Below are positions 32,295 through 54,430 of a DNA stretch of 64,000 nucleotides, piece by piece (positions within the stretch are counted from its first letter, which is position 1; each line of letters starts with the position of its first letter). This DNA is from Acidobacteriota bacterium (GTDB lineage Bacteria; Acidobacteriota; CAIWXX01): the NCBI GenBank assembly GCA_016191015.1, contig JACPPM010000200.1, positions 21,954-85,953 on the forward strand. Direction: 5' to 3'. The position numbers were made by a program, and so were the translations under genes. The notes beneath the pieces are model-generated. The model was not told the DNA's origin. It saw only the letters and a program-made list of their open reading frames with translations, and searched no databases.

Positions 32295-32298
32295 CGCG

Positions 32299-33423
32299 GT
32301 GCGGCACGGAGACGGGAGGCCAGACATGAGCGGACGCCCCACAACGCAAACCGATCACGCCCGGCACCACCCCGCGCACTGCATGGCGCCAGGGTTGTTT
32401 CGATCACTGAAGGGCCGGAGTCGCACGGACCGCCCCGCCCTCGACATCAGATACACCTGGGGCGACGCTGAGTACCACTTCCTTGGCGTGGCACTTGGGG
32501 TCGAGGACATGCGTGTCTTACAGGCGCTGACCGCGATCGCGGGTGTGCGCGGTCTACAGCTCCCGCACGAGTCGACTCGGCCGCGAGACCCGCACTGGGA
32601 GCGTCTGCGCCGCACACTCGAGGATACGCCTGCCGACGGCAGTCCGCGGGACCACCGCTCCGCTACCGCTGCGGCTCTCGTGACGAGTCGCTATCGTCTA
32701 GCGGTCGAGGCCGGCTGGGAACCGCACTCCGCCCGCCGCATGCACCTCCTGCTGGAGGCGCTGGAGCGCCTTGGCGCGATCTCGCTCTACGTCACGCACG
32801 GCGCCAAGATCACGGGTCCGTACCGGCTGCTCGCCTTTTTGCTTGATCGAGACACCGACAGACTGCTGATCGCTCTCAACCCGCACATCGCCGCCACAAT
32901 CCTCGGCACCATACCCAGCGTGGCCTATGTCTCGCTCGTCGAGGCACGCGCGCTCACAACCGACCCCAGCCGCCTGCTGCACCAGTGGCTATCCGCGTGG
33001 ATCGGACCCGGCCAAGCGCGCCTCATCTCTATCGACGCAATCTGCTCGCATATCTGGCCCGACAGGGCCACGGACCGGAAGCTACGTGATCGGCGTCTCA
33101 AGGCCCGGGCCAGTCTCGACGAGATCGCCGCACTACCGTACTGGCAGGTCACCCCCCTCCGTCCTGACACCTGGCGCATTTCGCGCCGACGGGGCCTCCC
33201 CTCCGTCGGGGTGTACCGACATCGTCGTTGGGGTGTACCGGCATCGACGTTGGGGTGTACCGGCATCGACGCCCCCCCAGATGCCCATCCGCATCACAGC
33301 CGCTACCAGCGCGGGTCCCAGCCACCAGCGTCACTACCGGACGAAACCGCTCTAGTAGATACTAGAGAGTATCTAGGGCGCGAGGCCCTGGATGACCTCG
33401 CGCCCTCTGGGCCATGGAGATGA
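32299..33423 (+). CDS. Putative replication initiator-like protein holding internal iterons
   Basis: No recognizable catalytic motif. Placed between helicase-like and primase-like genes, and its 3' end holds three 22-bp direct repeats. Confidence 0.4.
   Translation: MRHGDGRPDMSGRPTTQTDHARHHPAHCMAPGLFRSLKGRSRTDRPALDIRYTWGDAEYHFLGVALGVEDMRVLQALTAIAGVRGLQLPHESTRPRDPHWERLRRTLEDTPADGSPRDHRSATAAALVTSRYRLAVEAGWEPHSARRMHLLLEALERLGAISLYVTHGAKITGPYRLLAFLLDRDTDRLLIALNPHIAATILGTIPSVAYVSLVEARALTTDPSRLLHQWLSAWIGPGQARLISIDAICSHIWPDRATDRKLRDRRLKARASLDEIAALPYWQVTPLRPDTWRISRRRGLPSVGVYRHRRWGVPASTLGCTGIDAPPDAHPHHSRYQRGSQPPASLPDETALVDTREYLGREALDDLAPSGPWR
33208..33273 (+). repeat. Three tandem 22-bp iteron-like repeats (ggggtgtaccgRcatcgWcgYY)
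   Basis: Units at 33208-33229, 33230-33251 and 33252-33273. The 22-bp period is not a multiple of 3, so this is a DNA-level repeat. Followed by a C7 run. Confidence 0.7.
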
Positions 33424-34220
33424 GGCGTCAGCTCGCGTGGTACGACTCCGTGGGCGTGGACCGGTTCGATATCGCCGTCTCTCTGAGCGCCGACAACAGC
33501 GACGGCATGATCTGGCACCGCGACATCACCGCCGATCGAGTCATCGCGCTCAGACCCTTCGCCGCGGCGCGCAACGCCGCTGGCGCGAACATCTACGTCC
33601 GGCCGGCTCGTGGTCACGACTGGCCGGTTCTCCTGCTCGATGACATCACTCGCTCTTGGGCGGATCGGATCCAGCGCGCCCGCGCCTGCTGCCTGGTCGA
33701 GACCAGTGCCGCCAATCACCAGGCGTGGATCCACTGCGCTCGTTCCCTGGATGAGCCGGAGCGGTGCGCGTGCCAGCGCGCGATCGCAACCAAGATCGGT
33801 GCGGATATCGGCTCGGTCAGTGGGGAGCACCTCGGCCGCCTCGCAGGCTACCGGAACAACAAACCCGGGCGCGGAGGGCACTGGGTACGCATCCATGCGA
33901 TCGGCGCCGGCCCAGCGTGGGATCCGTCGCGCGTCCTCGCCGCTCAGAGTCCCGGCGATCTCCCGCAGCCGACTCCACCCCCAGGGGGGGCTGTGGTTCA
34001 CGGCGGCGGCGGACCGGATGAGAGCGCCGACGAGTGGGGCTATGTATGCGGCCGGCTGACGTGGCTACGCGACTCGCACGCCTCGGACTCACGCATCACG
34101 GCCGAGCTCGCGGCGATGTCGGCGCAGCTGGAGCGACGCGCGGTCGCACGCCACAAAGCAAAGCCGGCACAGTACGCGGCCCGCACCGTCGCCAACGCAC
34201 GCCGGAGGATCGGGGTGTGA
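33414..34220 (+). CDS. Putative primase/replication protein (RepB'-like)
   Basis: Motifs NIYVRPARGHDWPVLLLDDI and QAWIH. Start overlaps the upstream stop. Assignment is tentative. Confidence 0.4.
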   Translation: MEMRRQLAWYDSVGVDRFDIAVSLSADNSDGMIWHRDITADRVIALRPFAAARNAAGANIYVRPARGHDWPVLLLDDITRSWADRIQRARACCLVETSAANHQAWIHCARSLDEPERCACQRAIATKIGADIGSVSGEHLGRLAGYRNNKPGRGGHWVRIHAIGAGPAWDPSRVLAAQSPGDLPQPTPPPGGAVVHGGGGPDESADEWGYVCGRLTWLRDSHASDSRITAELAAMSAQLERRAVARHKAKPAQYAARTVANARRRIGV

Positions 34221-37815: not shown

Positions 37816-38019
37816 ATGCTAATCCGCATCGAAGTCAATACAGCCGCCGAGGCAGACGAGGTCCTTGACGCGTTGCGTCATCGCTTCTGGGGCCGCATCC
37901 GGGAAGTCGCCCACACACCAGTGTGCCGAGATGTGTATCTGATGCCTCAAAGTGTCGAGGTGCCAGGCCGGGAGGGACGCACATGCAGAGCGGACAGGCA
38001 GGACGAATCGCAATCATGA
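37816..38019 (+). CDS. Small hypothetical protein
   Basis: 67 aa. Its stop overlaps the metzincin start (ATGA). Confidence 0.3.
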   Translation: MLIRIEVNTAAEADEVLDALRHRFWGRIREVAHTPVCRDVYLMPQSVEVPGREGRTCRADRQDESQS

Positions 38020-40646: not shown

Positions 40647-40655
40647 GAGCAAGTG

Positions 40656-43508
40656 ATGAAACGATTGGTTTTCGCATTCTGTGTTTTCGGGCTAGGGATT
40701 TCGGCGCACAGGGCAGGCGCGCAAAGCGGTACGATCGCGATCACGGGTGTGGTGCCGGATGCGAATGGCCATACCGCGACCGTGAACTACAGTTGGAGCC
40801 AGACCGGGCCGGGGTCCAACAAACTCATGACGGGCGACCTCTACGTGCGCATCCTACAGGGTGTGTCACTAGCGCCTGACATCTACAATGATGGGTTCGG
40901 CACCATGTGTACCCAAGCCGCGTCCATGACGTGCGCTGGCACAACCGCGTACTTGGTGGGCTACGGCCGCTTCGGGGTGTGTGTGAACAGCGCCAGCAGC
41001 ACAGGTTCCTTCACCATGGACGGCCTCCTCCCGGGCGTTGGCTACACAGTACAGTTGATCGGGTACCTCGAATGGACAGCAGATTGTGCGAGCCCTGTGC
41101 CCGTGGCTACGCTCTGCATCACGAGTGGTGTCAGCGCCTTGACGATGGGCGCTGGTCAGCCTCCTGTCGTCACAACGCTCGCTGCTTCCAGCGTCACTGG
41201 AACCACCGCAACGCTGAACGGAACGGTCAACCCGAACAACCTCAGCACAAGCCACTACTTCGAATGGGGCACAACTGTTGCGTATGGTAATACCACGTCT
41301 GTCGGACTCCTGTCCCCAGGCCCTCTCAACGGGGCCTGTACCACTCTAGCCACCGCCGGAGGATGGATAGCGAACGCGGTATCAGCGGGGCTGACCGGCT
41401 TGACGGGCGGGCAGACGTACCATTTCCGGGTCGTGGCCACCAACGCACAGGGCACGACCTACGGCGGCGACCAGCAGTTTGCGGCCGCCCAAGTTCCTTC
41501 TCTCACAACCAACCCTGCAACGGGCGTTGGCAGCACCACAGCCACCCTTAACGGTGTCGTCACGACCAACGGCTTAACCGCGAGCTGGTGGTACGAGTAC
41601 GGCACCGGCAGCGGTGTCTATCCCAACAGCACACCAGGCGGGACCGTGCCGGGCGGCACGCCCAGCGCGGCAGTCAGCGTGACTCTCAGTGGGCTACTGC
41701 CCAACAGCACATACTATTTCCGTCTCGCTGGTGCGAATGCGAACGGGACGGGATACGGGATCGAGCGCAGCTACACGACTGGCAGCGCCGCTCCTCCTAC
41801 GGCTATCACGGGTGCAGCATCGGGGGTGAGTACCGTGTCGGCGATACTGACAGGGACCGTCAATCCCGCAGGATCCGCAACCATGTATTGGTTCGAGTGG
41901 GGGACATCGGTCGGCTACGGCAACACGACCCCATCGCAATCCGCTGGCAATGGCACGAGCAACGCGTACGGCAGCTATCCGCTGAGCGGACTCACGAGCG
42001 GCCAAACCTATCACTATCGGGTCGTCGCGCAGAACGCATCAGGTACCGGGTACGGCTCGGATGTCGCCTTCACGACAGGCGCGACTAATCCCCCGGCCGT
42101 GACGACCGGCTCCGCATCGAGTGTGGGCACGACGTCCGCAACCCTTGGAGCCACCATCAATCCGAATAGCTCCGCCACGAGCTGGTACGTCGAGTATGGT
42201 CCGACCACCAGCTACGGGCAGACCGCCTACGGCGGCACAGTCCCGCCAGGCTCCTCGAACGTCTCAGTCAACGTTACCATAACAGGACTGACCCCAGGCA
42301 CTCTCTACCACTGGAGGCCCGTCGGCACGAACGGCATTGGCGGACGCAGCTTCGCGCCGATGGCGTATGGCACGACGTACGGCGCCGACTCGACGTTCAG
42401 CACGACGAGCGTGAGCTATCCCGGGCCTACGGTGACGACGGAAGCAGCGTCGAACGTGGGTTACACAGGCGTGGTTTGCAACGCGACCGTGAATTTCCAA
42501 GGCGACAGTGGCACCTACTGGTTCGAGCTGAGCACATCACCGGGCGGTCCATACACGATCACCTCATCCACCGGCTCCGGTGCGGGAGCGACGGACGTGT
42601 ACGTAAGCCGCGCTGTCTCCACGCTCTCCCAGGGGACGACTTACTACGCTCGCGCCGGTGCACAGAATTCGGGAGGAACTACGTACGGTGCGGATGTCTC
42701 CTTCGTCACAGACACTGCCGGCGTGGGCGTACCCATTGCGAACACGCTCGACGCCAGCAACATCACGACTACGGGTGCTGTGCTCAACGGCACGTACCAG
42801 CCGAACGGGGCGTCGTCGAGCCAGGTGTGGTTCGAATGGGGCACCAGCGCATCGAGTCTCTCAAACGCCACGAGCATCCAAAACGGAGTTGGTGGATCCA
42901 CCGAAACCAGCTACAGCCGGAGCCTCACCACTCTCACCGCGGGAGGCACCTACTACTTCAGGCTGGCGTGCAGCACGCCTACGGGAGGCACTGCCTACGG
43001 CGCCACGCTCACTTTCACCACCAGTACCACGCCGGTCACGTATCTCGAATTCAGCAACTTCAAGTGCAAGTGGAAGGATGTAGCCAACTCCAATCTGCTT
43101 GGTGGTAGCGGAAAGCGTGGTCTCGCTCGCAAGAGCCGGGCCTCGCTCACGTTCACCGGCACCGGCATCGATCTCTACTCGATGCTCGACAAGACACTCG
43201 GCAAGATGAAAATCACGATCGACGGTGCCGCGCTTCGGCATCCCGTCACAATTAGACGGCTCACCGCCGACCGTGGGCTCGTCACGGACATCATCAATCC
43301 CACGAAGCTCGGTCGGAAATCCGGGAAGGGATCTCCGCTCTCCACCACGGTGGATCTTTACACACCGGGAGCGACACAGTTCCAAGAGATTCTCTACTCG
43401 ATCTCCGGGCTATCCAGCGGACAGCACACACTGCGAGTCGACGCGGTCGCGCCCAAGGGGACGAAGCGCTACCACATTTTCGTGGACGCGGTGCGAGTGC
43501 GTGAGTGA
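40656..43508 (+). CDS. Secreted protein with about nine FN3-like repeats and a C-terminal beta-sandwich domain
   Basis: Signal peptide (MKRLVFAFCVFGLGISAHRAGAQ). Repeated ~90-aa modules (T.TL.GTVNPN...YWFEWGT...YG.TT...GQTYH[FY]RVVA.N..G). AGGAGC ribosome-binding site. Confidence 0.75.
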   Translation: MKRLVFAFCVFGLGISAHRAGAQSGTIAITGVVPDANGHTATVNYSWSQTGPGSNKLMTGDLYVRILQGVSLAPDIYNDGFGTMCTQAASMTCAGTTAYLVGYGRFGVCVNSASSTGSFTMDGLLPGVGYTVQLIGYLEWTADCASPVPVATLCITSGVSALTMGAGQPPVVTTLAASSVTGTTATLNGTVNPNNLSTSHYFEWGTTVAYGNTTSVGLLSPGPLNGACTTLATAGGWIANAVSAGLTGLTGGQTYHFRVVATNAQGTTYGGDQQFAAAQVPSLTTNPATGVGSTTATLNGVVTTNGLTASWWYEYGTGSGVYPNSTPGGTVPGGTPSAAVSVTLSGLLPNSTYYFRLAGANANGTGYGIERSYTTGSAAPPTAITGAASGVSTVSAILTGTVNPAGSATMYWFEWGTSVGYGNTTPSQSAGNGTSNAYGSYPLSGLTSGQTYHYRVVAQNASGTGYGSDVAFTTGATNPPAVTTGSASSVGTTSATLGATINPNSSATSWYVEYGPTTSYGQTAYGGTVPPGSSNVSVNVTITGLTPGTLYHWRPVGTNGIGGRSFAPMAYGTTYGADSTFSTTSVSYPGPTVTTEAASNVGYTGVVCNATVNFQGDSGTYWFELSTSPGGPYTITSSTGSGAGATDVYVSRAVSTLSQGTTYYARAGAQNSGGTTYGADVSFVTDTAGVGVPIANTLDASNITTTGAVLNGTYQPNGASSSQVWFEWGTSASSLSNATSIQNGVGGSTETSYSRSLTTLTAGGTYYFRLACSTPTGGTAYGATLTFTTSTTPVTYLEFSNFKCKWKDVANSNLLGGSGKRGLARKSRASLTFTGTGIDLYSMLDKTLGKMKITIDGAALRHPVTIRRLTADRGLVTDIINPTKLGRKSGKGSPLSTTVDLYTPGATQFQEILYSISGLSSGQHTLRVDAVAPKGTKRYHIFVDAVRVRE

Positions 43509-43598
43509 GTCAAACGACGCGCCAGGATGGCCCAGGACGCGTCCGGAGAGGCGAGGTAGGGGTCTAGGCATCCCCCCGAACAACGAAGGAGGACGGGC

Positions 43599-44060
43599 AT
43601 GAAGAATGAGTTGGACGACCAGATTGCGCGGACCGCGGAGCGGCTGTCGCGGCGTGGGGCCTGCCGCCGGCGACGCATGCGGCACCAGAAGAAGTCCATG
43701 CGCGCTGACCGCTGGGCGATTCGAGCTCGCGAAATTGTCCCGCCAGAGCATGGGCGCATGGCGTGGGCATCCGATGCGGCGCGTGAGATCCTGCAGGACC
43801 TCTTGCGTGTGGGTAAGGTGCCAACGCAGATCTTCGGCGTCTTGGAGCGTGAGTTGGGTGTGTGCAAGAGGCGCGGAGCAAATTCGGCATTATTGCTGAA
43901 TGAGCCGCTCGCGGTAACGATCCTCGAGGCGGCTGCGCAGCGCGTAAATGGACGGGATCGCCTCGCGCGTGTCGTTGCCGTCCTGTTCCTCTCACTCGAG
44001 GAGTGCCTGCTGGCGACGGGGACGCGGAAGGTAGTCTCTGGCGCAGCGGTGGAGCGCTAG
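43599..44060 (+). CDS. Hypothetical protein
   Basis: 153 aa, basic N-terminus, no recognizable motif. Confidence 0.35.
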   Translation: MKNELDDQIARTAERLSRRGACRRRRMRHQKKSMRADRWAIRAREIVPPEHGRMAWASDAAREILQDLLRVGKVPTQIFGVLERELGVCKRRGANSALLLNEPLAVTILEAAAQRVNGRDRLARVVAVLFLSLEECLLATGTRKVVSGAAVER

Positions 44061-44061
44061 G

Positions 44062-45876
44062 ATGAGTGCTGGCGTTATGCTGGAGCAGGTGTGGCCATGG
44101 ATCGCGGCGTGGCCCTTCCGCCTCGTGGCTGCCGTCGTCGCGCGCAAGCCCGAGGTCCTCGCAGTGGTGCCGCACCTGCCAGCCGTTGCGCTGGCGTGCT
44201 GGGGACTCTGGTTGTGGGCTCGTCTCACGCGCAGGCAGCTACTCCATACGTGGCCGCGCCTCTCGAATTTCCTGGGCTCGGGATGGCTCGCGCCTATCGC
44301 GACATGGTTCACTGCGCTCACTCTGATGCTCATTCGCGGCACCTGGCTCGTGCGAGTCCTGCCAGGCCACGAGGTCGGTGCAGTATCGCACGCCGGCGCC
44401 CTCATGCTCTATCCGGCCGCGGCGTTCTGCGCATGGCGGATTCTGCCGCCGCTGGCGCGCAAGGGCAACCTCGGATCGGCCGTGTGGGCCGCGGTGAGGA
44501 ATGTTCGGGTGCGGTCCGGCGCTCCCTTCCTTCTGCCGGTGCGCATACCTCTTCGGCCGTGCAGAAGGCCCCGAGCGTGGGACATGGGACCCGCTGTGCT
44601 GGCACCTGACCGCGGCACCGTCTGCCGGCACACGCTGGTCCTTGGAGGGTCCGGAGCCGGAAAGGGTGCGTCGGTGCTCGGTCACATCATACAGAGCACG
44701 CACCTGCCGCTCATCTATCAGGACGTCAAGGCGGAGTGCCCGCTCCTTGTTGACCGGTGGCAGCGCCGCGGCAAGCCGCCGATTGTGTGGGGCGCGTCGC
44801 GTCCGGGCGGCTGGCCGTCGCTCAGCTGGAATCCTCTCCAGGAGGCATACGACGACCCAGATTTCGAGGATGCGTGCGGCGGGCTGGCAGGTGCGCTGCT
44901 ACCAGTGGTCAAGGGCGAGAACGCATGGGTCACCGACACGGCCCGTCTGCTCCTCACGCACATTTTTTCGCAACGCGTGTACAGAGCCCTCAGCGAGATT
45001 CGCGACGAGCTGAAGGGGCACGGAATCGCGGCGGTTCTCACGAGAGTCGGTTCGGCGGCTGGGCTCGACGAGCAGCTCGCCGGAAAGAACGCGAAAGAGT
45101 ACGCGTCGAACGCCCTCCAGACGACCCTTGATCACTTTGGGGTCGGGTGGGCGCGCGCCGCCACGACTCTGCACAACTTCAGTCTGTCAGATGTCCTGAC
45201 CACCGACTGCTACGTGCTATCGAATGAGTCCGATGAGAAGCGGCGTCTTCCCCTGCAGGTCTTCTGGCGGATGTTGTTCCGCAGAATGCTCAAGGCGTCC
45301 GAGCTGGGAAATATGCTATTGCTGGATGAGGGGCTCGCCGCAGGCTACATCCCGGGCTTGGCAGATGCGCTGAATACGATCCGCAGCAAGGGTGGTGCGA
45401 TCGTCTTCGCGATTCAGAATAGCGGGGGACTCAAGGCCGTCTACCGGGACGAGGCGGAGGCCGTGTCGGAGGCTTTCGCCTCAAAGATTGTCCTGCTCAG
45501 CGGGCTTAATCCGGAGGACCTCCAAGCACTCACGAAGCAGATGGGCGAGTTCACAGTGGTCCGCGGACGGCCGCTGCTCCCAGTCAAAGGTGAGCAGATT
45601 GCATCCTTGCTGCCGATCGAGTACGCGAGCAAGCTCGCGCTCCTCCCGAAGCAGTGGTGGGGCGTCATTCGAATCCCGGGTGTGGTGCGGACGGGCCGGC
45701 CCATCCTGGCGCGGATGATGGCGAGTAGTTTCGCCGTCCAGGAGCCGCACCCACACCTGGCGGAGGCGATGCAGCGGGCCTATCCCGCCCGACCATTCGC
45801 AGGCACAGCTGTGAATATCGTCCCGGAGGCTACTCCGGCCGAGCCAGACTCCACACCGCAGGCATTCGGACTATAG
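44062..45876 (+). CDS. Type IV secretion coupling protein (VirD4/TraG/TrwB-like)
   Basis: N-terminal TM helices. Walker A LVLGGSGAGKGASVL and Walker B MLLLDEG. Confidence 0.7.
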   Translation: MSAGVMLEQVWPWIAAWPFRLVAAVVARKPEVLAVVPHLPAVALACWGLWLWARLTRRQLLHTWPRLSNFLGSGWLAPIATWFTALTLMLIRGTWLVRVLPGHEVGAVSHAGALMLYPAAAFCAWRILPPLARKGNLGSAVWAAVRNVRVRSGAPFLLPVRIPLRPCRRPRAWDMGPAVLAPDRGTVCRHTLVLGGSGAGKGASVLGHIIQSTHLPLIYQDVKAECPLLVDRWQRRGKPPIVWGASRPGGWPSLSWNPLQEAYDDPDFEDACGGLAGALLPVVKGENAWVTDTARLLLTHIFSQRVYRALSEIRDELKGHGIAAVLTRVGSAAGLDEQLAGKNAKEYASNALQTTLDHFGVGWARAATTLHNFSLSDVLTTDCYVLSNESDEKRRLPLQVFWRMLFRRMLKASELGNMLLLDEGLAAGYIPGLADALNTIRSKGGAIVFAIQNSGGLKAVYRDEAEAVSEAFASKIVLLSGLNPEDLQALTKQMGEFTVVRGRPLLPVKGEQIASLLPIEYASKLALLPKQWWGVIRIPGVVRTGRPILARMMASSFAVQEPHPHLAEAMQRAYPARPFAGTAVNIVPEATPAEPDSTPQAFGL

Positions 45877-45886
45877 AGGAGGACAG

Positions 45887-46849
45887 ATGAGACAGAGAAT
45901 CGAAACACTGATCGTGCAATTGCGCCTTCGGGCAGGTTGGCGCGCACCGCTCGTTGTCGCTTGCGTATTGGCCGCTTGGATGTTTCTGCTGCCAACCACG
46001 GCTTATGCCCAGGAGACTATTGGCAGCAAGTTTATGGAGGACACGATGCGCAAAGCGCTCGTGCCCGTCGTCATGGCGTTCATGACCAAGGTCAGTAACT
46101 TCGTGACCCCATTGCTGGCGGGGTTGGCTACAATCTTCGTAATCTGGACCGCGATCAAGAACTTCCTCGCAGACAGGCCCTTCCAAGAGACCTTCGCAGA
46201 GATTCTGATGACACTGCTCATCGTCACGGCCCTCACGAACACGGACAACTACAGGTGGCTCTTCTGGGACATGATGTATGGTGGGCTCTACACGGAGCTT
46301 GTTGTCCCTGCCGGCGAAGGGGATACGGGCTTCCCGGCGGCTGTGCAAGAGCTGGCTCACCAGCAAGCGGAACGCTCCGCGAAGTGGAACCTCAGCACCG
46401 GCATGACGATCATCCAGCGCATCGGCGAATCCATCAACACACTCGAGACAGGAGGCGTTGCTTGGCTCATGCAAATCGGCGCACTCTTTGTCGAGCCCCT
46501 CATGACGTCCGCCACCATCTTTGCGATAATGTCGATCGCTTTCTTCGGGGCGATCGGCCAGATATTTCTCTCCATGTGGCTACTCGACTTCACGAAGGAC
46601 TATACGAAGAAGTGGTTCGGCTGCTATATGGGCGCGATATTCTCGTTGGTAGCAATCAGCTTCTTCGCGCCATTTCTGAGCGGGTGGTGGAGTGATGTTG
46701 TGGCCGAAGCGGTACAACTCGAGAACGCGAACAAGGGCATCACGGAAAAAATGCTTACTCCTGGCCTCATGAAGCAGTTCGTGTGGAGTTTCTTCGGCAT
46801 CATGGCAGCCCTCAAGGCGCCCAGTTTGGGGAAGGAGCTGTTCCGGTGA
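45887..46849 (+). CDS. Polytopic membrane protein (VirB6/TrbL-like candidate)
   Basis: GAGGAGG ribosome-binding site. At least five hydrophobic helices. This region is visibly AT-richer than the rest. Confidence 0.45.
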   Translation: MRQRIETLIVQLRLRAGWRAPLVVACVLAAWMFLLPTTAYAQETIGSKFMEDTMRKALVPVVMAFMTKVSNFVTPLLAGLATIFVIWTAIKNFLADRPFQETFAEILMTLLIVTALTNTDNYRWLFWDMMYGGLYTELVVPAGEGDTGFPAAVQELAHQQAERSAKWNLSTGMTIIQRIGESINTLETGGVAWLMQIGALFVEPLMTSATIFAIMSIAFFGAIGQIFLSMWLLDFTKDYTKKWFGCYMGAIFSLVAISFFAPFLSGWWSDVVAEAVQLENANKGITEKMLTPGLMKQFVWSFFGIMAALKAPSLGKELFR

Positions 46850-47796
46850 GTGTGATGATGATGGATGCGACGCGACAGCGGTTGGTAGCAGCGCTCATCG
46901 CTCTCGCAATCATGATGGCAATTGTCGTTCCGTGCGCGAGCGCAATGCCTCCGGTCTTCATGAACGAAGTCATCGACATGGCTCAAGACAACCAGAAGGT
47001 AGCGAGAATTCTGAGCGAGCTCGGGAGCTGGCACGCCACGGTGTCATCCGCTATTCAAACCTACCAGATGATGCGTCGGATGACCGAGACACTCACATCG
47101 GTTGTGGGGTCACTCGACAATCTCAGTCTGCGGGTAGTCCCACGTATCAAGTTGACGAGCCTCCTTGGGCTCGCATTCAACAACACAGAAATGCAGAAGT
47201 TTTTCGAGCTGATGGAAGGTGGGGCTAAGCTCAGCGATCTAGCGGAACTCTCCGGTTTCATGCAGAACCACTTTCTCACGCAGTACGACACTATTTTCCC
47301 TGACAGCTACAATCCGGTCAGCACAGACCCCGAGACCCCTCCCTTGCGTGCGAAGGATTGGGAGTTTGTGTGGGGGTGGGGGACGCTGAACCCGACCGAC
47401 GCGGAGCGCGGCATGCTAACTGCCGCCGAAGGTCGGATGGCTTGGCGCAAGATGCTCGCCGTCCGTAACCAGGCCAACCTCGCATCCATGCGCGGCATGG
47501 CGGAAGACAACACAACCGCGCTCTCTGCCTTGGCGGACAAGGTCAGGGAGGCCGAGAAGAGCGGAAAAGCTTACGACGCGATCATAGCGCAGGTCGGTGC
47601 CATGCTCGGCGACGTGCAATTGCAGACCGAACTCATCACCGGCCAGCTCGAGATGCTGGTCCAGGCAGGGGGCGAGGAAGTTGACCACATCGGCGCGGTT
47701 CGCAACGCCACACCAGAGGCTGTTGAGGCGATTTGCAAAGACGCCGGTGACGGATTGAATGGCTCGGCCTCGCTCTACTTCAGGCTGGGGTGGTGA
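46846..47796 (+). CDS. Hypothetical exported protein (possible VirB5/TrbJ-like)
   Basis: GTG start overlaps the upstream stop, 8 nt after AAGGAG. N-terminal hydrophobic segment, helical/coiled-coil rest. Confidence 0.4.
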   Translation: MSVMMMDATRQRLVAALIALAIMMAIVVPCASAMPPVFMNEVIDMAQDNQKVARILSELGSWHATVSSAIQTYQMMRRMTETLTSVVGSLDNLSLRVVPRIKLTSLLGLAFNNTEMQKFFELMEGGAKLSDLAELSGFMQNHFLTQYDTIFPDSYNPVSTDPETPPLRAKDWEFVWGWGTLNPTDAERGMLTAAEGRMAWRKMLAVRNQANLASMRGMAEDNTTALSALADKVREAEKSGKAYDAIIAQVGAMLGDVQLQTELITGQLEMLVQAGGEEVDHIGAVRNATPEAVEAICKDAGDGLNGSASLYFRLGW

Positions 47797-48093
47797 TCGC
47801 CGCCATGCCCCGGTGCGAAGACGGAGTGCCGGCAGTCACGACGAGTCCTTCGCCGTCGCTCGCCTGGGCCCGCTCTCACGCCCCGCGTCTCGGGCACGCT
47901 TCGCTCTCCGGCTCCGTTGCAGACGGGTCCCCTCCCGCCTTCGGCGGGAACCCTCCCCATCTTCACTCCGCCTCCGGCCTGAGAAGCGGGGACGCGGGCC
48001 TTTAGGGCGAGGCGACGGCGAAGGACTCATCGTGAGACAGGCGGCGGCAGACAATACACAGTAATGCGTGTATTGCCGCCAAAGCCGCACGAG

Positions 48094-48120
48094 GCGCCGG
48101 CTCAGGATCTATCGTGAGAC
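48094..48120 (+). repeat. Element-internal repeat family B, partial copy (…caggatctatcgtgagac)
   Basis: Matches the 3' part of the copies at 48967-49034 and 50277-50335. Confidence 0.55.
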
Positions 48121-48135
48121 AACCGTAAGAACTCC

Positions 48136-48330
48136 ATGAAGACGATTATCTGTCCGAATCCGAACTGCGGATACCGAGGTACGCCACGAAGAGAAGCGCG
48201 GGGGAGCGCCTTACTGGGGTGCTTTCTGATGTTCCTGTTTCTGCTTCCAGGCATCTTCTATTTCATGCTCAAGAGCGGGTGGCGCTACTACTGCCCGCGA
48301 TGCGGCCTGCAGATGGGCGTGCAGAACTGA
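48136..48330 (+). CDS. Small zinc-ribbon membrane protein
   Basis: CPNPNC...CPRC ribbon flanking a central TM helix (LLGCFLMFLFLLPGIFYFML). Confidence 0.45.
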   Translation: MKTIICPNPNCGYRGTPRREARGSALLGCFLMFLFLLPGIFYFMLKSGWRYYCPRCGLQMGVQN

Positions 48331-48468
48331 GGTGATGCCGCCAAGCCTGGCACCCCGAGTTGGCGAAATGCGTCAGCTGCGTCGGGCGGAGTATAATACA
48401 CATGTGACCGCAGCCCTCGGGAATTGCAAACGATTTGGCATCTTAAACCCCTATCGAGGTTGGCGCAC

Positions 48469-48948
48469 ATGAAGATTCGCCTAAATTCCACTCCATCGTC
48501 CAAGGAGCCGAGTCCGATCACTCCGCCAGTCATTCTTCATCTCAGCCCAGAAGTTATCGCATGCGCTGAGAAACAGCGGGAGGACTGCCTGAGAGAGCAG
48601 CGACGGAAAGAAGACGCTCTGAGAGCGGACGAAGAAGAAGAGGCACAACGAGAGGAACAGCGCCAATCGGGCGCGCGCCTCCATGAGTCTGTAGCTTTGC
48701 GGCAGCTGGCAAATGCTCGAATCGAAGAAGAAAGGGCGGCCCGAACGAAGGCGGACGAGGCGCACACAAGGGAAGAAGAAATCCGAAGGCAACGACTCGG
48801 TGAAAGGGAATCTGTCTCCGTCGGAGCCGGAGGTAAAACCGGAGGCTCCAAGGCCAAGGAGAATGCGGAGGATGAGGATGAGAAAGGCGGCTCAACCCCT
48901 TCGACCTTCATCAGCTTCTTCCGTCGTTTCTTCGCGCCCCGGGGATGA
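48469..48948 (+). CDS. Hypothetical highly charged (E/R-rich) protein
   Basis: Coiled-coil-like EEEEAQREEQR composition. Confidence 0.3.
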   Translation: MKIRLNSTPSSKEPSPITPPVILHLSPEVIACAEKQREDCLREQRRKEDALRADEEEEAQREEQRQSGARLHESVALRQLANARIEEERAARTKADEAHTREEEIRRQRLGERESVSVGAGGKTGGSKAKENAEDEDEKGGSTPSTFISFFRRFFAPRG

Positions 48949-48966
48949 CCGTTGGAACTGTAGGTC

Positions 48967-49034
48967 CCCCTATCCCCCGCCCGGGGTAACGCGGAACGGA
49001 GGCTCGGGCGCCGGCGCAGGATCTATGGTGAGAC
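48967..49034 (+). repeat. Element-internal repeat family B, full copy 1
   Basis: cccctatcccccgcccggggtaacgcggaacggaggctcgggcgccggcgcaggatctatggtgagac. Confidence 0.6.
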
Positions 49035-49063
49035 GGGGGAACGGAACAGCCGGCGAATGAAGT

Positions 49064-49315
49064 TTATAGTTGGCGCTCCTTTAGGTACTGCGCAAGTGCC
49101 TCGATCACAATATCGACCATTTCGCGTCGGGTGCTCGCTGCGGCCACCTTCAGGCGATAGTGGAGCTCTTCCGGCAAATTGAACGTAGCCTTTTTCATCG
49201 CCGCTTTTCCGAATGGCGACTGCGCCTCTATACGCTGTATAGCTGTAGCCTGTATGCCTGTATGTCCAGCCTGCCTTTGTCCGGTGACTCCTGCCAATCC
49301 TACGCGCTTAGACAT
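49064..49315 (-). CDS. RHH/ParG-like partition DNA-binding protein
   Basis: C-terminal RHH (KKATFNLPEELHYRLKVAAASTRREMVDIVIEALAQYL). Lies immediately downstream of parA on the same strand. The start could instead be the internal ATG at 49198. Confidence 0.5.
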   Translation of the reverse strand: MSKRVGLAGVTGQRQAGHTGIQATAIQRIEAQSPFGKAAMKKATFNLPEELHYRLKVAAASTRREMVDIVIEALAQYLKERQL

Positions 49316-49953
49316 TTTCTCAACTCCTTTACGAGTAGTCGCAATTCCTTGGTCGCCGCTGAGTGTGGCGCAAGACCGGAAACGGTCCGCCCCGCGACAG
49401 ATGCCTCTGCTAGGGCCACCCGTTGTGCTATTTCGGCACGGCAGACAGGCAGTCCGATGCTTCTGGCAGCTTCGCGAGCCTCATCGCCGATTGCCGTGCC
49501 GACGATCCGCCGGCTGATCACGATGTAAGCACGCAACCCCGCATTGCTGCTCCGGGCGCGTGCGATCATCTCCGCCATCCCTTCGCCGCTCCACAGGTCG
49601 AACGCAGACGGCTGGATCGGAACAAGAACGAGATCCGCGACAGCCAGGGCCGACCGCGTAATGCTCTCGGCGCCCGCTGGTCCCCCAGGGGGGCAGTCAA
49701 TCAGGATCATGTCGTACTTGTGGCGGAGTTTGGGCACCTCAGCATGGAGGATTGGCGCCGGCATAGCGACGACATGGAAAGGGATTGAACCCTCCGATCG
49801 AACGCCACGCCAGCGAACAACGGATCCCTGCGGATCGGCGTCAACGAGAAGTGCCTCAAGCCCTTCTTCCCCCAGGATCCCAGCCAATCCGAGCGCGATC
49901 GTGGTCTTGCCACATCCGCCCTTCTGGTTGGCAATCACAATAACGTGACCCAT
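49300..49953 (-). CDS. parA: ParA/ParF-family partition ATPase
   Basis: Deviant Walker A NQKGGCGKTT. ParA motifs VDADPQGS and ILIDCPP. 217 aa, small plasmid-type. Confidence 0.85.
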   Translation of the reverse strand: MGHVIVIANQKGGCGKTTIALGLAGILGEEGLEALLVDADPQGSVVRWRGVRSEGSIPFHVVAMPAPILHAEVPKLRHKYDMILIDCPPGGPAGAESITRSALAVADLVLVPIQPSAFDLWSGEGMAEMIARARSSNAGLRAYIVISRRIVGTAIGDEAREAARSIGLPVCRAEIAQRVALAEASVAGRTVSGLAPHSAATKELRLLVKELRKCLSA

Positions 49954-49990
49954 ATGTCTGTAGATACAGACTACAGCGATACAGCGATCT
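49954..49990. promoter_or_regulatory. CTGTAG/CTACAG repeat cluster directly upstream of parA (candidate operator or centromere)
   Basis: tgtctgtagatacagactacagcgatacagcgatc. Related CTGTAT repeats lie at 49225-49270. Confidence 0.5.
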
Positions 49991-50276
49991 TGTCAAGTCG
50001 CGCCGTGCGTCGCCGGCGCGAGAGAGCGACAGCGGAGTTCGGACCGCCGCTCGCCCAGAGTCCCTGGGCTCCCTCCTCAACCCCGCTGGGCGGGGACCCG
50101 ATGCCCCCTAGCCCCGTCGGGGAACCCGGACCCAGCGAGGGCGATGGACGACGAGGTGTCAGGACCTTCGCGCAGATCCACCAGGACCGTGGCTTCGAGG
50201 AGCCGCGGAATTCCGGACCTGCGCGCGGCCGGGCGGCCGTGCTACTCCAGGGGCAAGCCCCTGGACCCATGTCCCA

Positions 50277-50335
50277 CCTATCCCCCGAAGGGGGTAACGC
50301 GGACGGAGGCTCCGGCTCAGGATCTATCGTGAGAC
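50277..50335 (+). repeat. Element-internal repeat family B, full copy 2
   Basis: cctatcccccgaagggggtaacgcggacggaggctccggctcaggatctatcgtgagac. Confidence 0.6.
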
Positions 50336-50600
50336 ACGATCGATCGATCGACATAGCCCCGGCCGCGGGATCGGAAAGGAGTTGACTTTTGACCCCACAA
50401 GTGCCAACCTTCGCCTATGGGTACCCGTAGGGCAGACAGGACCGCGTTAGATCTGCGCGAAGCACTCGGCGCGTCGCAAGAGACATCGGATTTCTCCACC
50501 GCCTCGGGCCGGAAACGAATCAAGGCGAGGTCGTTGTGGAGTTCGATGGGCGGTTTTACCGCATTACGAAATTCGATTCAGCGTGAATTAGGAGGATCTC

Positions 50601-50978
50601 ATGGCTAGAATCCACGACACCAGCAAGAGCCTGCCGCGTGTGCGCGATACGAGCACGGCCCTCGCGTGTATACCAGCCAAGAAAGTGACGACGACCCTGG
50701 GCGCTAATCGTACGCCTCACTTGAGGCAGGGTGCAAAGGGGCCCATCAGCTTGCTCGCGTTAGCGGAGCTCCTGAGCCAACAGTTGGCGTCCACAGGCGG
50801 CCGACCAGGTCTCGCAAACGCAGAGCGGCGCCAAAAGATCCCTACGTTGAAGGGGGACTGGCAAAGGCTCAAGCATATCGCGTCCCAGCTGCAGCAACGA
50901 GGCGTTCCCTGCACACCGGGGCAGGTGGCGGGCATATTGCTCCACGAAGACATTAATTGGCTCGAGGCCGCGATATAG
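50601..50978 (+). CDS. Hypothetical protein
   Basis: Strong AGGAGGA ribosome-binding site. No recognizable domain. Confidence 0.4.
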   Translation: MARIHDTSKSLPRVRDTSTALACIPAKKVTTTLGANRTPHLRQGAKGPISLLALAELLSQQLASTGGRPGLANAERRQKIPTLKGDWQRLKHIASQLQQRGVPCTPGQVAGILLHEDINWLEAAI

Positions 50979-51325
50979 AGAGAGAAGCCGGAAGGACGCT
51001 CTCCGGGAAAAGCAACCTGAAGAAGAACGCCAGAGGAACTACGATCGCTAGACCGTTGACGGCGAAGCAGCGGCGGGAGGTTGCGGCGCTCGCTCAGCGA
51101 CCCGACGGCGAGATCGACTACTCCGACATTCCACCGCTCGAAGACAAGTTCTGGAGGGACGCCGTCCGGAATCCTTTTTATCGTCCGGTCAAGCGACAGC
51201 TCACCGTGCGGTTGGACGTGGATGTGCTCGTGTGGCTGCGCAGCCAGGGCAGGGGATACCAGACGAGAATCAACGCCCTGCTGCGTGAGGAGATGCTCAA
51301 GAGGATGGGCAAGAAAACAGCGTAG
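50957..51325 (+). CDS. BrnA/DUF4415-family antitoxin-like protein
   Basis: Family motif DYSDIPPLEDKFWRDAV...LDVDVL.WLRSQGRGYQTRINALLR. Start codon uncertain (possibly TTG). Confidence 0.5.
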   Translation: MARGRDIEREAGRTLSGKSNLKKNARGTTIARPLTAKQRREVAALAQRPDGEIDYSDIPPLEDKFWRDAVRNPFYRPVKRQLTVRLDVDVLVWLRSQGRGYQTRINALLREEMLKRMGKKTA

Positions 51326-51404
51326 CAAATCCCCCCAGACCCCCCTCCTAATACTAATATGCGCTGTCTCCGCAGCGCATCTATCTGATGCGGCTCAGAG
51401 TGAT

Positions 51405-51442
51405 GTTACCTGGGAGGTAACATTTGTTACCTCCCAGGTAAC
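51405..51442. other. Perfect 17-bp-stem hairpin (gttacctgggaggtaac-attt-gttacctcccaggtaac)
   Basis: Inverted repeat read directly. Lies between the brnA-like gene and brnT. Confidence 0.6.
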
Positions 51443-51480
51443 ATCCCTTCTCCTCGTGCCCGTCCTGCCATCCGGGCCAC

Positions 51481-51545
51481 GGTGAACCACTGCCCCCCCC
51501 CTGGGGGTGGAGTCGGCGGCAGAGAGCTTCCGGGATTCCTGCCGT
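51481..51545. repeat. Element-internal repeat family C, copy 1, with a C9 homopolymer
   Basis: gtgaaccactgccccccccctgggggtggag...gagagcttccgggattcctg. Related to 52225-52290, and the core recurs at 33970 and 36620. Confidence 0.6.
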
Positions 51546-51619
51546 GGGACGGTGGCGCTAAGAAGGAGCCCTCGCGCACAGCCCTGCAATTGTAGCTACA
51601 GAAGGAGTTATAATGGTTC

Positions 51620-51903
51620 GTGAGGTTCGCGTGGGATGAAACTAAGAATACGGAGAACATTCGGAACCACGGCTTCGACTTTGCCGATGTGTGGGAGCTC
51701 TTCGAAAATGCACTCCTCGTGGACCTGGATACTCGCGAGATTATGGCGAGGACCGGTGGATAGGGATCGGACTGCTCAAGAGTGTGGCGGTCGTGGCCGT
51801 CGTCGTGTTTGCCGAGAGAGGACCGGAAACCGTGCGAGTCATCTCGCTCACGAAGGCAACGAAGCATGAAAAAGAAAGATACGAAAACGCCGTCAAGGAC
51901 TGA
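51620..51903 (+). pseudogene. brnT: brnT (DUF497 RNase toxin) disrupted by a -1 frameshift
   Basis: The N-terminal part (VRFAWDETKNTENIRNHGFDF...) stops at 51748. The C-terminal part (DYGEDRWIGIGLLKSVAVVAVVVFAERGPETVRVISLTKAT) continues in the -1 frame. Confidence 0.6.
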
Positions 51904-52141
51904 CTGGAAGCGAGTCAAGGCCATGTCCGATCCTGAGATTGATTGCTCCGATGTCCCTGAGCTCGGCGAGGATTTCTTTGCGCGAGCGGTTCTCTGGCCC
52001 GGGCCCAAGAAGCAAATCACTCTACGGCTTGACCCTGACGTCTTGGATTTCTTCAAGCACCAGGGCCGTGGCTATCAACGGAACATCAACACCGTGCTGC
52101 GGCGATACGTCGAGCTCCAAAGGCAGCGACACGCCAGCTAA
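51866..52141 (+). CDS. brnA: BrnA antitoxin
   Basis: MKKKDTKTPSRTDWKRVKAMSDPEID...ITLRLDPDVLDFFKHQGRGYQRNINTVLRRYV. Overlaps the 3' end of brnT. Confidence 0.7.
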   Translation: MKKKDTKTPSRTDWKRVKAMSDPEIDCSDVPELGEDFFARAVLWPGPKKQITLRLDPDVLDFFKHQGRGYQRNINTVLRRYVELQRQRHAS

Positions 52142-52224
52142 AGCCGATTCCTCACAAACGATGGCACGCCCCAGCGTGCCATCGCCTCACCTCGTGACTT
52201 TCTCGGTGGGGCCGGAATGGATGT

Positions 52225-52290
52225 GAACCACAGCCCCCCCCTGAGGGTGGAGGGGGCTGCGGAGAGCTTCCGGGATTCCTGGAGTGGGGC
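52225..52290. repeat. Element-internal repeat family C, copy 2, with a C8 homopolymer
   Basis: gtgaaccacagccccccccctgagggtggagggggctgcggagagcttccgggattcctgg. Confidence 0.6.
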
Positions 52291-52340
52291 GGCAAAGACC
52301 AATCGTCCGGCTCGCCGCGTGAGACAGCTTGAAGACAAGG

Positions 52341-52691
52341 CTAGCGCAGTGGCAGGTACTGGACGCGCTGTGCCAGTTCGCCCGGTTCGGCGAGCACGGC
52401 CAGCAGGTGGAGATCGGCGACGAACTGCCCGATTGTCATGCGCAATTGGTGGGCATAGATCACGCCGGTGAACGGGCGTCCTGCATTCTGCCACGCGTGA
52501 GCATGCCTAAGGAAGTCCTCGTCTTGGGTCACCACCACCCTCTCGAGCTCGCAAGCTCTGGCAAGCACGGCAGCGTCGCTCTCGCCAACGTGTCCGTCCT
52601 GCTGGACACTCAAAACATCTATGCCAGCCATGCTCAGAGCCGCGGTGACCGCGGCCGGCACGTGCTCGTCCATGTAGAGCCGCAGGCCCAC
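52341..52691 (-). CDS. DUF5615-family (PIN-like) putative toxin
   Basis: About 116 aa with a conserved acidic/His core. Paired with an upstream DUF433 gene through an ATGA overlap. Confidence 0.55.
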   Translation of the reverse strand: MGLRLYMDEHVPAAVTAALSMAGIDVLSVQQDGHVGESDAAVLARACELERVVVTQDEDFLRHAHAWQNAGRPFTGVIYAHQLRMTIGQFVADLHLLAVLAEPGELAQRVQYLPLR

Positions 52692-53050
52692 TACAAGCGG
52701 CCCTCAGCCTTCATGCGAGCAAGGAATGGAGATTCGCCTTCTCGCGCGCGAAGATCCTCCACGCGTCGGACCTGGGCACCGATTTCTACATCCATCTCAG
52801 GCTTGTGATCGTAGTAGTACGAGAGCGCGGCATGAATCTGCGCCAGGCTGATCTGCCGATAGTGCTGAATGAAGATCTCCTCGGGGCTCCATCCGTGGGC
52901 GAGGTGATCGAGCGCGATCTCCACAACTTTGCAGGAGGTTCCCTCGATCGTGGCTCGTCCCTCCGCGTCGAGCCGGATATGTGGAACTGACGTGACAGCT
53001 TTGGACAACTTGCTTTCCTCCTCCCTCGAATATACTACGTGCTCTCTCAT
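52691..53050 (-). CDS. DUF433-family putative antitoxin
   Basis: DUF433-like region IRLDAEGRATIEGTSCKVVEIALDHLAHGWSPEEIFIQHYRQISLAQIHAALSYY. Confidence 0.55.
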   Translation of the reverse strand: MREHVVYSREEESKLSKAVTSVPHIRLDAEGRATIEGTSCKVVEIALDHLAHGWSPEEIFIQHYRQISLAQIHAALSYYYDHKPEMDVEIGAQVRRVEDLRAREGESPFLARMKAEGRL

Positions 53051-54204
53051 CCAGCTTTGCTGATCGGCACAATTTTCTCGGTCGTTCGTCTCTCAACGGC
53101 CTCGCGCCGTTCCTTGATATCCATCGGAGAGTAATGCAGCTCCGCAATCCGGACGTCGGTCCGCAGCACGCGTGCCGCCATAAGCAACCCAGCTTGCTGC
53201 GTGATGTCACGGCCGAAGGTTCTCCGGAGGTCGTGGATGTTAACATTCGGGATGTGTGCTGTCGTCCGGATCCAGTTCCAGTGGTTCTTCAAGTCTTGTC
53301 TCCCGCGATCCGGATCTTGACCGGGAAACACGAAAAGAGAACGCCTGGGTACTTGCCTGAGCTTCCCGATCGTATACGCCGGGAGTGGGACTTCCTGGGA
53401 TTTGCCGGCCTTTGTTTGCGGAAGTGTCCAGATTGCTCGCTCGAAGTTGATGTCATCCCACTTCGCCCTCAGTACTTCGCTCTTGCGAGCTCCCGTCGTC
53501 ACAAGCATGAGGAACGCGGTGCGTACGAAGGGTTCGGGAATTTGCTCGATCGCGATGAGGACGCGCTCGAGCTCCTCTTCAGTCAACGCCCGCTTGCGAG
53601 GGGGCGGCTCGGGGTACCGACGGACCTTTCTCGCCCGATTCTCCATGATCAAGCTGCGCCTCCATGCCTCTTGCAGGCATCCGCTCACACTGGCCAGAAA
53701 CCTGTTGGCCGCGGCGTTGTGACCTTCAGCAGCCAGCCTCGCTGCCGGCTTCTCGATGTCTTCCACGCTCACTTGGTCGAGTCTCTTCTCTCCGAATTCT
53801 GCCGATGCCTTGCGGAGATAATTACGGTCCTCTGATGGCCTTTTCTTCCGCAAAGCTATTCGCTCGAGGTACTCGGTGATCCATTCGCGCATCAGGGGTA
53901 TCGCCTGACGGCGTTGCTTATCAGCGAGAGGGTCGCCGCCCTTGATCACGCACGCGAGCTTTTCGATCGCCATCTGACGTGCGGCTTCAACCGTGAGGGG
54001 ACCGTAAAGACCGAGAGTGATTCTGCGCCTCGTCTTGCGACCGCCGTACCGCAGCACGAATGCCTTACGACCACGCGGAGCCTCCTTGCTCCCGGGATAG
54101 GCAACGACACCGAGACCGGGGATCTCGTTGTCCCAGACGTAAGCACGATCGCCCGCGTTTGTCTCGAGAGAGTCAATCAGGCGCTTAGTGAGTCGACCTT
54201 TCAT
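53047..54204 (-). CDS. int: Tyrosine-type site-specific integrase (P4-like)
   Basis: N-terminal arm-binding domain (LTKRLIDSL...AYVWDNEIPGLGVVAYPGS), a core-binding domain, and a C-terminal catalytic domain with a conserved H..R...Y region. Confidence 0.9.
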   Translation of the reverse strand: MKGRLTKRLIDSLETNAGDRAYVWDNEIPGLGVVAYPGSKEAPRGRKAFVLRYGGRKTRRRITLGLYGPLTVEAARQMAIEKLACVIKGGDPLADKQRRQAIPLMREWITEYLERIALRKKRPSEDRNYLRKASAEFGEKRLDQVSVEDIEKPAARLAAEGHNAAANRFLASVSGCLQEAWRRSLIMENRARKVRRYPEPPPRKRALTEEELERVLIAIEQIPEPFVRTAFLMLVTTGARKSEVLRAKWDDINFERAIWTLPQTKAGKSQEVPLPAYTIGKLRQVPRRSLFVFPGQDPDRGRQDLKNHWNWIRTTAHIPNVNIHDLRRTFGRDITQQAGLLMAARVLRTDVRIAELHYSPMDIKERREAVERRTTEKIVPISKAG

Positions 54205-54245
54205 CCTACTCCTCCTGTGTCAGTGCGCTGGTCAGTAGGTTGCTC

Positions 54246-54266
54246 GGGTACCACCAGGGTACCACG
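54246..54266 (+). promoter_or_regulatory. Tandem GGGTACCACC arm-type repeat, right end of element
   Basis: gggtaccacc-a-gggtaccacg, in the same orientation as the left-end copy at 30748-30768. Confidence 0.6.
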
Positions 54267-54381
54267 CACTCATAGTAACCCGCCGACACCAGAATACGCT
54301 TCACACGACTAAGTGTAACATAACTATGAATGTCGTCAACACCCAAATACGCCCGGCAACGTATAAAACGTTTACAGCCTA

Positions 54382-54430
54382 CTGACTACGAATCAGTAGG
54401 TCGGGAGTTCGAGCCTCTCCGGGCGCGCCA
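54382..54430 (+). repeat. attR: partial tRNA-Arg 3' half
   Basis: ctgactacgaatcagtaggtcgggagttcgagcctctccgggcgcgcca, with 3 mismatches to the intact tRNA. Confidence 0.85.

Follow-up and report, generated by a model that had tools for sequence, protein, structure and literature searches.

The locus considered here raises the question of where a small partition system keeps its centromere. It lies at positions 49064–49990 of a 64,000-nucleotide stretch of contig JACPPM010000200.1 from an Acidobacteriota bacterium (this whole stretch is called the window below), within an integrated mobile element. It consists of a parA gene, a small gene encoding a ribbon-helix-helix (RHH) protein, and two arrays of a short CTGTA box, one immediately upstream of parA and the other inside the RHH gene itself. 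Type Ib partition systems are textbook knowledge, and it is ordinary to meet one on a mobile element. The unusual features are the position of the second site and the strength of its imprint on the protein. We consider it likely that the cassette is a type Ib (ParF/ParG-like) partition system in which the intragenic array serves as the centromere and the upstream array as the operator.

The parA gene (49300..49953, minus strand) encodes a 217-residue protein that begins MGHVIVIANQKGGCGKTT and carries the Walker A motif KGGCGKT. The protein matches Pfam AAA_31 and CbiA, as well as the NCBIfam equivalog NF041546, ‘ParA family partition ATPase’, the latter with 212.9 bits (cutoff 180) over model positions 1–203 of 203, and it aligns end to end with TP228 ParF (4dzz) and ParA 5u1g (E ca 3e-18). 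The open reading frame (ORF), the NF041546 match and the full-length ParF alignment thus bear out the ParA that an initial annotation, made from the letters alone, had proposed here. The product has the makeup of a type Ib ParA, that is, a Walker-type ATPase of ca 200–230 residues with a deviant KGGxGK[ST] motif and no N-terminal helix-turn-helix (HTH) domain. The layout is also that of a type Ib locus, with parA and then the gene of a small, putative centromere-binding protein in one operon, an order that is found in 11 related loci as well.

The second gene (49064..49315, minus strand), which we call parG-like, overlaps parA, as had been noted from the start; the overlap is 16 nt long (ATGTCTAAGCGCGTAG). 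A Shine–Dalgarno sequence, AAGGAG (49324..49329, minus strand), precedes the ATG at 49315 by 8 nt and still falls within the end of parA. The product is a predicted centromere-binding protein of 83 aa with a basic N-terminal peptide, a disordered linker and a C-terminal RHH core (49064..49195, minus strand), the last comprising the KKATFNL beta-strand, two helices and the stop codon, with the invariant alignment columns K41 K42 A43 T44 F45 N46 and onwards. In an AlphaFold2 (AF2) model, residues 1–37 have a predicted local distance difference test score (pLDDT) below 50 and residues 41–80 are confident, with helices at 49–62 and 66–80. The best Foldseek match of this model is ParG 1p94 (probability 0.99), followed by CopA, Arc, AmrZ and CopG, and the profile of the RHH family matches the RHH structures 2kel, 4aai and ParG 1p94 (E = 0.0075) and, marginally, omega (E = 0.14). 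In Pfam, the protein scores 20.0 bits with ParG (PF09274), under the gathering threshold of 21.4, and its other matches are sub-threshold too (56B_RHH, 23.4 with a cutoff of 27.2, and RH3, 15.8); the NCBIfam scan gave no model above cutoff. The label ‘ParG-type’ used in the initial annotation is therefore justified by the architecture and by the nearest fold, but not by the Pfam threshold. As judged from the model, the protein has the ParG architecture of a disordered N-terminal tail and a C-terminal RHH fold, and by analogy the fold would dimerise and contact DNA, and the tail would stimulate the ParA ATPase through an arginine-finger-like residue.

With the second array placed in linker codons, it matters whether the tail is translated. 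One might suppose that the protein starts at Met40 and that the array is thus intergenic, but we rejected this. Namely, the relatives lack a start codon just ahead of the KKKATF core. The N-terminal peptide is conserved and stays in frame with the RHH core throughout (11 of 11 parA-adjacent loci, with linkers of 38–110 residues). In the window the upstream ATG carries the AAGGAG, while Met40 has no comparable site. From this comparison of loci we conclude that the N-terminal tail is translated.

We now turn our attention to the boxes. Directly upstream of the parA start, where a motif cluster had been reported, there are indeed four of them, in a candidate operator array at 49958..49984 (minus strand) that ends 4 nt before the parA ATG. 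The CTGTAK boxes are at 49958 (plus strand), 49964, 49971 and 49979 (minus strand), and in gene orientation the region reads TTGACA-N13-CTGTAT-cg-CTGTAG-t-CTGTAT-CTACAG-acat-ATG, the last box being inverted. The TTGACA is a perfect −35 hexamer (49991..49996, minus strand), read from the sequence, and TTGAC(A/T) is kept at this place in homologous loci. A weak −10 candidate, TAGTCT (49968–49973, minus strand), is found 17 nt downstream of it and overlaps the boxes, which extend over the likely −10 region as well as the start site.

The intragenic array, the candidate centromere, is at 49228..49263 (plus strand), in linker codons ca 18–27. Its CTGTAK boxes are at 49235, 49243, 49250 and 49258, with spacings of 8, 7 and 8 nt and in reading frames 2, 1, 2 and 1, and a degenerate inverted half-site, TATAC, is present at 49228–49232. 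The second cluster had originally been placed ‘within or after’ the RHH gene, with the arrays flanking the cassette; it is within the gene and not after it, and the two arrays exist but bracket only parA rather than the whole cassette. Together they form a 23-nt inverted repeat in which 21 of the 23 positions (91%) are complementary, with 708 nt between the arms. Such clustering is not expected by chance. The window has 35 CTGTAK motifs, compared to 19 ± 4.5 expected, and two clusters of at least four boxes within 35 nt, compared to none in 150 first-order Markov simulations. Only one other pair of 5-mer boxes within 17 nt occurs in the window, overlapping CTGTACAG at 30002. No Rfam family matches near the cassette, either at gathering thresholds in the whole window or at E-value thresholds in 47900–50500. 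The possibility that the boxes are RepA iterons was rejected, because the same boxes form the operator in relatives without repA and in relatives without parA, and because here they accompany parAG, 15 kb away from the IncQ-like replication genes of the element.

To what extent the arrays are conserved can be seen from the family of the RHH protein. A word-indexed search gave 186 matches, and a library of 1.84 billion cluster representatives contains 585 matches at E ≤ 1e-3, of which 87 reach E ≤ 1e-10. The DNA was read for ca 20 loci and the rest of the family evidence is protein sequence; the related sequences are not independent, so that family-wide counts overstate the number of independent events. 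A conserved N-terminal peptide, MxKKxSL(KDAFV), characterises the long forms, in which a linker that differs greatly in length connects it to an invariant KKKATFNL...REMVDIV core. The short forms (52–76 aa) are the core alone, without tail or intragenic boxes, and are located ahead of repA or in prophage-like contigs. In the loci read, both the peptide and the intragenic boxes are confined to parA-linked forms. An in-frame N-terminal extension is present in all 11 loci where a ParA (NQKGGCGKT) gene directly precedes the RHH gene. Of the short-form loci, 10 offer 690 nt or more of sequence before the RHH gene, and not one of them has such a parA there.

The repeats could have been absent from homologous cassettes, but the opposite was found: every readable parA-linked locus of the KKATFN type has the CTGTA box at both positions, that is, upstream of parA and inside the RHH gene. 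The related cassettes with both arrays have RHH proteins that are 44–54% identical and a G+C content from 35 to 62%. They include L002, whose RHH protein is 54% identical to that of the window, L087, with the order parA-RHH-repA, and L093, L094, L095, L100, L121, L122 and L125; the same box is found at both positions also in L130 and L131, which are distant and AT-rich (35% G+C). With the same box in the same two places, the related loci support the initial proposal that these are candidate operator and centromere sites.

The operator layout is shared between the two forms, being found upstream of parA in 7 long-form loci and upstream of the RHH gene in 13 short-form loci. It consists of TTGAC(A/T), two to three CTGTA boxes 8 bp apart, an inverted TACAG ca 10 bp further on, and an ATG 5–6 nt later, which is what the autoregulatory operator of an RHH protein should look like at the level of sequence. 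In almost all family loci the start codon follows 4–6 nt after the last box (TACAGc-N-atATG; 49951–49957 in the window) without a Shine–Dalgarno sequence, and this arrangement suggests that the first gene is leaderless or nearly so, with a very short leader.

In the linker, selection can be separated from the peptide. Nine long-form loci, independent of each other, have 1.1–3.8 boxes per 100 nt of linker codons, and in eight of them the density outside the linker is 0.00–0.18 per 100 nt (L094 has no other sequence to compare). The linker boxes have both orientations and fall in two to three reading frames; four further loci and the two distant ones with 35% G+C (L130 and L131) are alike in this. 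One and the same DNA word is thus read as Ile-Gln (ATA CAG), x-Thr-Ala (xAT ACA GCx) or Val-Gln, so the peptide varies and the motif stays constant. The codon choice points in the same direction. Ile is encoded by ATA in 16 of 21 cases in the linker compared to 8 of 122 in parA and the RHH core of the same loci, and the corresponding numbers are 26 of 57 and 11 of 156 for GTA among the Val codons, and 28 of 55 and 9 of 92 for ACA among those for Thr. Over 2000 trials in which the linkers were resampled synonymously, the boxes numbered 2.4 on average and never more than 9; the observed number is 42. The use of several frames and both orientations, the rare ATA, GTA and ACA codons and the loss of boxes upon resampling lead us to conclude, from the sequences of these loci, that selection in the linker acts on the DNA.

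The boxes have also left their register in the protein. Over 115 boxes the consensus is a-T-a-G-CTGTA-T-a-k-C, and neighbours of the same orientation are spaced by 8 nt 23 times, by 16 nt 7 times and by 24 nt 4 times. An 8-bp register written in 3-nt codons repeats every 24 nt (three boxes), and a peptide period of 8 residues is therefore expected. The linker peptides of 41 long forms of the KKATFN type indeed have an identity of 0.185 when offset by 8 residues and of 0.144 when offset by 16, compared to 0.087 ± 0.007 for shuffles. In the linkers of 95 long forms, the peptide signature of the box has a frequency of 4.6 per 100 residues, compared to 0.6 elsewhere in the protein, and 62 of the 95 have at least two such signatures. 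On balance we lean, if only somewhat, towards a dual coding that extends over the whole family, in which the centromere would be overlaid on the codons for the flexible tail of the very protein that binds it and give this tail its 8-residue super-period, from 35% to 62% G+C. One side observation concerns L122, where ca 260 extra nucleotides between parA and the parG-like gene (4080–4343), called as an 87-aa ORF, carry seven more boxes; arrays can therefore also extend outside the linker codons.

Several features of the locus are known from characterized systems. In TP228, one ParG dimer binds each ACTC box, the boxes having 4-bp spacing and either orientation (PMC3130281), and the ParG tails recruit and stimulate ParF, the N-terminal tail docking in the ParA dimer (PMC3130281, PMC5393062). 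Like the window, TP228 parFGH (ParF, ParG, the OF operator and the parH centromere) has a small ParA without HTH, an RHH protein with a disordered tail, short boxes in an 8-bp register with direct and inverted orientations tolerated, and an operator array plus a second array (PMC3130281). In TP228 the tail is the part that contacts ParA (PMC5393062), as is predicted for the window. The differences are that the box of the window is CTGTA and not ACTC, that its spacers are not AT-rich, and that its RHH protein falls below the Pfam ParG threshold. Furthermore, both TP228 arrays lie upstream of parF, whereas the second array of the window is inside the parG-like ORF, and the replicon here is an integrative element.

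In the delta/omega system of pSM19035 (ParA delta, RHH omega and a heptad-repeat parS), the RHH centromere-binder is also a repressor, as predicted for the window, and the repeats are contiguous, of 7–8 bp and of mixed orientation. At least four contiguous repeats are needed there to activate the ATPase (PMC9499535), and exactly four boxes are present in each array here. In contrast to the window, with only two clusters, one of them in coding DNA, the omega sites are in the promoter regions of several operons.

The cyanobacterial plasmid pMIC7113.03 (Allocoleopsis franciscana, NC_019740) encodes an annotated ParG that is 34% identical to the window protein over 92% of its length. It has an array near the parA promoter and a second array with an 8-bp period (ATGTCTAA, about five times) at the other end of the operon, as in the window, but with a different box sequence and with the second array located past the parG coding sequence, where it extends downstream from the stop codon. 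The two-site plan is thus general and the intragenic position peculiar to the RHH family of the window. Centromeres inside genes are not new as such, since parS also lies inside spo0J/parB. HTH-ParB centromeres within ORFs are likewise found in, for example, repABC parS (PMC9040568). These are single 16-bp palindromes, and not multi-box RHH arrays that shape the periodic, variable-length linker of their own binder, and in our literature searches we met no report of an RHH protein whose own gene contains the centromere that it binds.

On this basis, the following mechanism can be proposed. By analogy with ParG and omega, dimers of the 83-aa protein would bind the 5-bp CTGTA (consensus G-CTGTA-T) in an 8-bp register, one dimer per box. 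The four boxes between TTGACA and the parA ATG, lying over the −10 region and the start site, would as an operator repress parAG. The four inverted boxes 708 nt away, in the linker codons, would form the actual partition site or, at a minimum, an additional loading site. Here the RHH dimers would coat the array and display their basic N-terminal peptides (MSKR...), and these tails would contact nucleoid-bound ParA-ATP and stimulate its ATPase, such that the excised, replicating element is separated by a diffusion ratchet. The combination of 8-bp box and 3-nt codon registers would give the linker its 24-nt, 8-residue period, and box number and tail length would co-vary.

The strongest alternative, although in our judgement an unlikely one, is that the intragenic array is a second regulatory site, acting as a roadblock or pause for RNA polymerase or by looping to the operator, and that partition uses the upstream array only. 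Such a site would tune the ParA:ParG ratio and, in related plasmids, the expression of the downstream repA. That the two arrays are near-identical inverted copies fits with this, as does the position of repA directly after parG in the relatives, with start and stop codons overlapping or closely adjacent, and the operator array of TP228 alone can serve as a centromere (PMC3130281). However, the short forms right before repA appear to regulate via the upstream operator alone, with no internal boxes, and in the window there is no repA downstream of the parG-like gene. It is also the restriction of the intragenic boxes to parA-linked forms in the loci read, together with their number, which reaches nine perfect boxes in L100 and L125 and seemingly exceeds what a simple roadblock needs, that leads us to take this array as the probable partition site proper.

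Another option, which we find quite improbable, is that the cassette is a non-functional or re-purposed remnant, whose ParA/RHH pair would serve excision, transfer, regulation of the element, or nothing. The element is integrated, the N-terminal peptide of the RHH protein is atypical of its family, and the closest genomic relatives of the ParA (46–47% identity) are in apparently chromosomal contexts with a different small partner. Yet both ORFs are intact, with all ParA motifs and the full-length equivalog match, each array has four perfect boxes and the two are identical at 21 of 23 nt, and the element has a complete IncQ-like replication module. Finally, the idea that the intragenic repeats are the DNA shadow of a repetitive, low-complexity peptide, or that they pair as RNA with the parA leader, has next to no probability and is already contradicted by the sequence data, for although the linker is repetitive as a peptide (IQ and TA motifs) and the arrays are complementary on one strand, the one motif appears in different frames and orientations as different peptides (HTG, IQ, ATA), the rare codons are specific to the linker and the boxes are destroyed by synonymous resampling, while the mixed box orientation in the linkers of the relatives means that the pairing is not conserved, and most operator boxes are upstream of the likely start site.

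It is important to note that several points weigh against the assignment of an intragenic centromere and an upstream operator. We infer the binding of the boxes by the RHH protein, the operator and centromere roles and the ATPase stimulation from known systems, and with the TP228 operator alone also having centromere activity (PMC3130281), the sequence cannot tell which of the two arrays is the centromere. The element is seen here in the integrated form. The N-terminal peptide of the window, MSKRVGLAGV... (K3, R4, R14), is the most divergent of the family, with Gly at the position of Ser6 (Ser in more than 90% of the members) and the DAFV/EFV stretch missing, and the coupling to ParA could be weaker here as a result. 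A strict sigma-70 promoter and terminator scan calls no site at parA, and we therefore infer the promoter from the −35 hexamer and its conservation. There is also a KKTTFN subfamily, which differs in the DNA-reading beta-strand and has both the tail and a parA partner. Its ten linker peptides have no 8-residue period and the one locus read as DNA (L124) has no intragenic boxes, which indicates that a box-laden linker is not obligatory for the tail architecture of the RHH proteins. As this tail exists without boxes, the boxes are not a requirement of the peptide.

What makes the locus of interest is that a predicted binding array and a protein linker share the same nucleotides, with the selection on the DNA measurable via rare codons and multiple frames, and with an 8-residue periodicity of the peptide that can be traced to an 8-bp register of the DNA. 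If the intragenic array is the centromere, it would offer a clean natural system for overlapping codes, in which synonymous recoding can separate the site from the protein, and it would give a rule by which the centromere of an RHH partition system not yet characterised could be located from the sequence of the protein alone. Were the dual coding to hold, the gain or loss of a box would alter the centromere size and the length of the adaptor tail together, each transcription and translation of parG would run through the partition complex, and the arrangement would be conserved across the family and not an accident of one locus.

The element that carries the cassette is ca 23.7 kb long and is bounded by 25-bp direct att repeats, at 30652–30676, inside a tRNA-Arg gene (30625–30701), and at 54381–54405. 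It encodes a tyrosine integrase (53047–54204, minus strand), an HTH_17 protein (31002–31307), an IncQ-like replication module at 31392–34220 with a RepA helicase (AAA_25), RepC and a RepB primase domain, a type IV coupling protein, and toxin–antitoxin pairs. With the integrase, the att repeats and the replication and transfer genes, as read from the genes of the integrated form, it belongs to the integrative mobilisable or conjugative elements. The combination of an IncQ-like replication module, a tyrosine integrase and a type Ib partition system is an unusual pairing. The cassette and the IncQ-like replication genes argue for persistence as a low-copy plasmid after excision, and from this gene content it is plausible that the element spends time as a plasmid. 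One public Logan contig from another run (L085) is 100% identical to 40136–54412 and ends 7 nt past the right att repeat; this end is at most suggestive of junction heterogeneity and might reflect a mixture of integrated, excised or empty-site forms in that sample.

As to the relatives, five of the loci with long forms (L002, L121, L125, L087 and L122) have the order Xer-like or phage-type integrase, an unknown ORF of ca 165 aa, parA, a long parG-like gene and repA (RPA/RepA_C). Their replication type differs from that of the window, and the partition cassette and the boxes are the same. When GTDB genomes were scanned with the ParA, no relative exceeded 47% identity, and those found pair with another small protein and lack CTGTA clusters. 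PLSDB contains only five matches to the RHH protein, all weak, and in IMG/VR only short, parA-less forms of the family were found. In the closest genomic relatives of the ParA, from Nitrospirae and Leptospirillum metagenome-assembled genomes (L005 and L006, 46–47% identity), parA is followed by the gene of an unrelated small protein. The N-terminus of this protein, K-P/S-R-P-[ST]-L-[KR]-E-[IT]-[VI]-R, resembles the MxKKxSLKDAFVR of the RHH family, a resemblance that is consistent with this peptide being a ParA-contacting motif.

Around the cassette there are three plus-strand copies of a core GGCKCCGGCKCAGGATCTATSGTGAGAC, at 48090–48120, 48966–49034 and 50274–50335. Copies 2 and 3 have ca 70 nt in common (87–89% identity), are 1308 nt apart and bracket parA–parG, and copy 1 is directly before the start of a plus-strand ORF (48136). 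A 41-aa ORF antisense to parG starts 23 nt past copy 2 (49057), and the next ORF (50417) starts 82 nt past copy 3. The repeats have no Rfam match, and RNA folding is not significant for copies 2 and 3 (z = −2.8 for copy 1). They may be a repeated promoter or regulator site, in which case copy 2 would fire antisense into parG.

The reading frame of a BrnT toxin looks split (51620–51903), with a 47-aa ORF corresponding to BrnT positions 1–35 and the remainder in another frame at 51691–51903; this could be either a frameshifted pseudogene or a sequencing error. It adjoins a BrnA antitoxin (51782–52141), and a second BrnA is at 50957–51325. The element also carries, at 37923–43508, two very large cargo proteins, one of 907 aa with reprolysin-like metallopeptidase, BACON and TIG domains, and one of 951 aa with fibronectin-III and PhoD_N-like domains.

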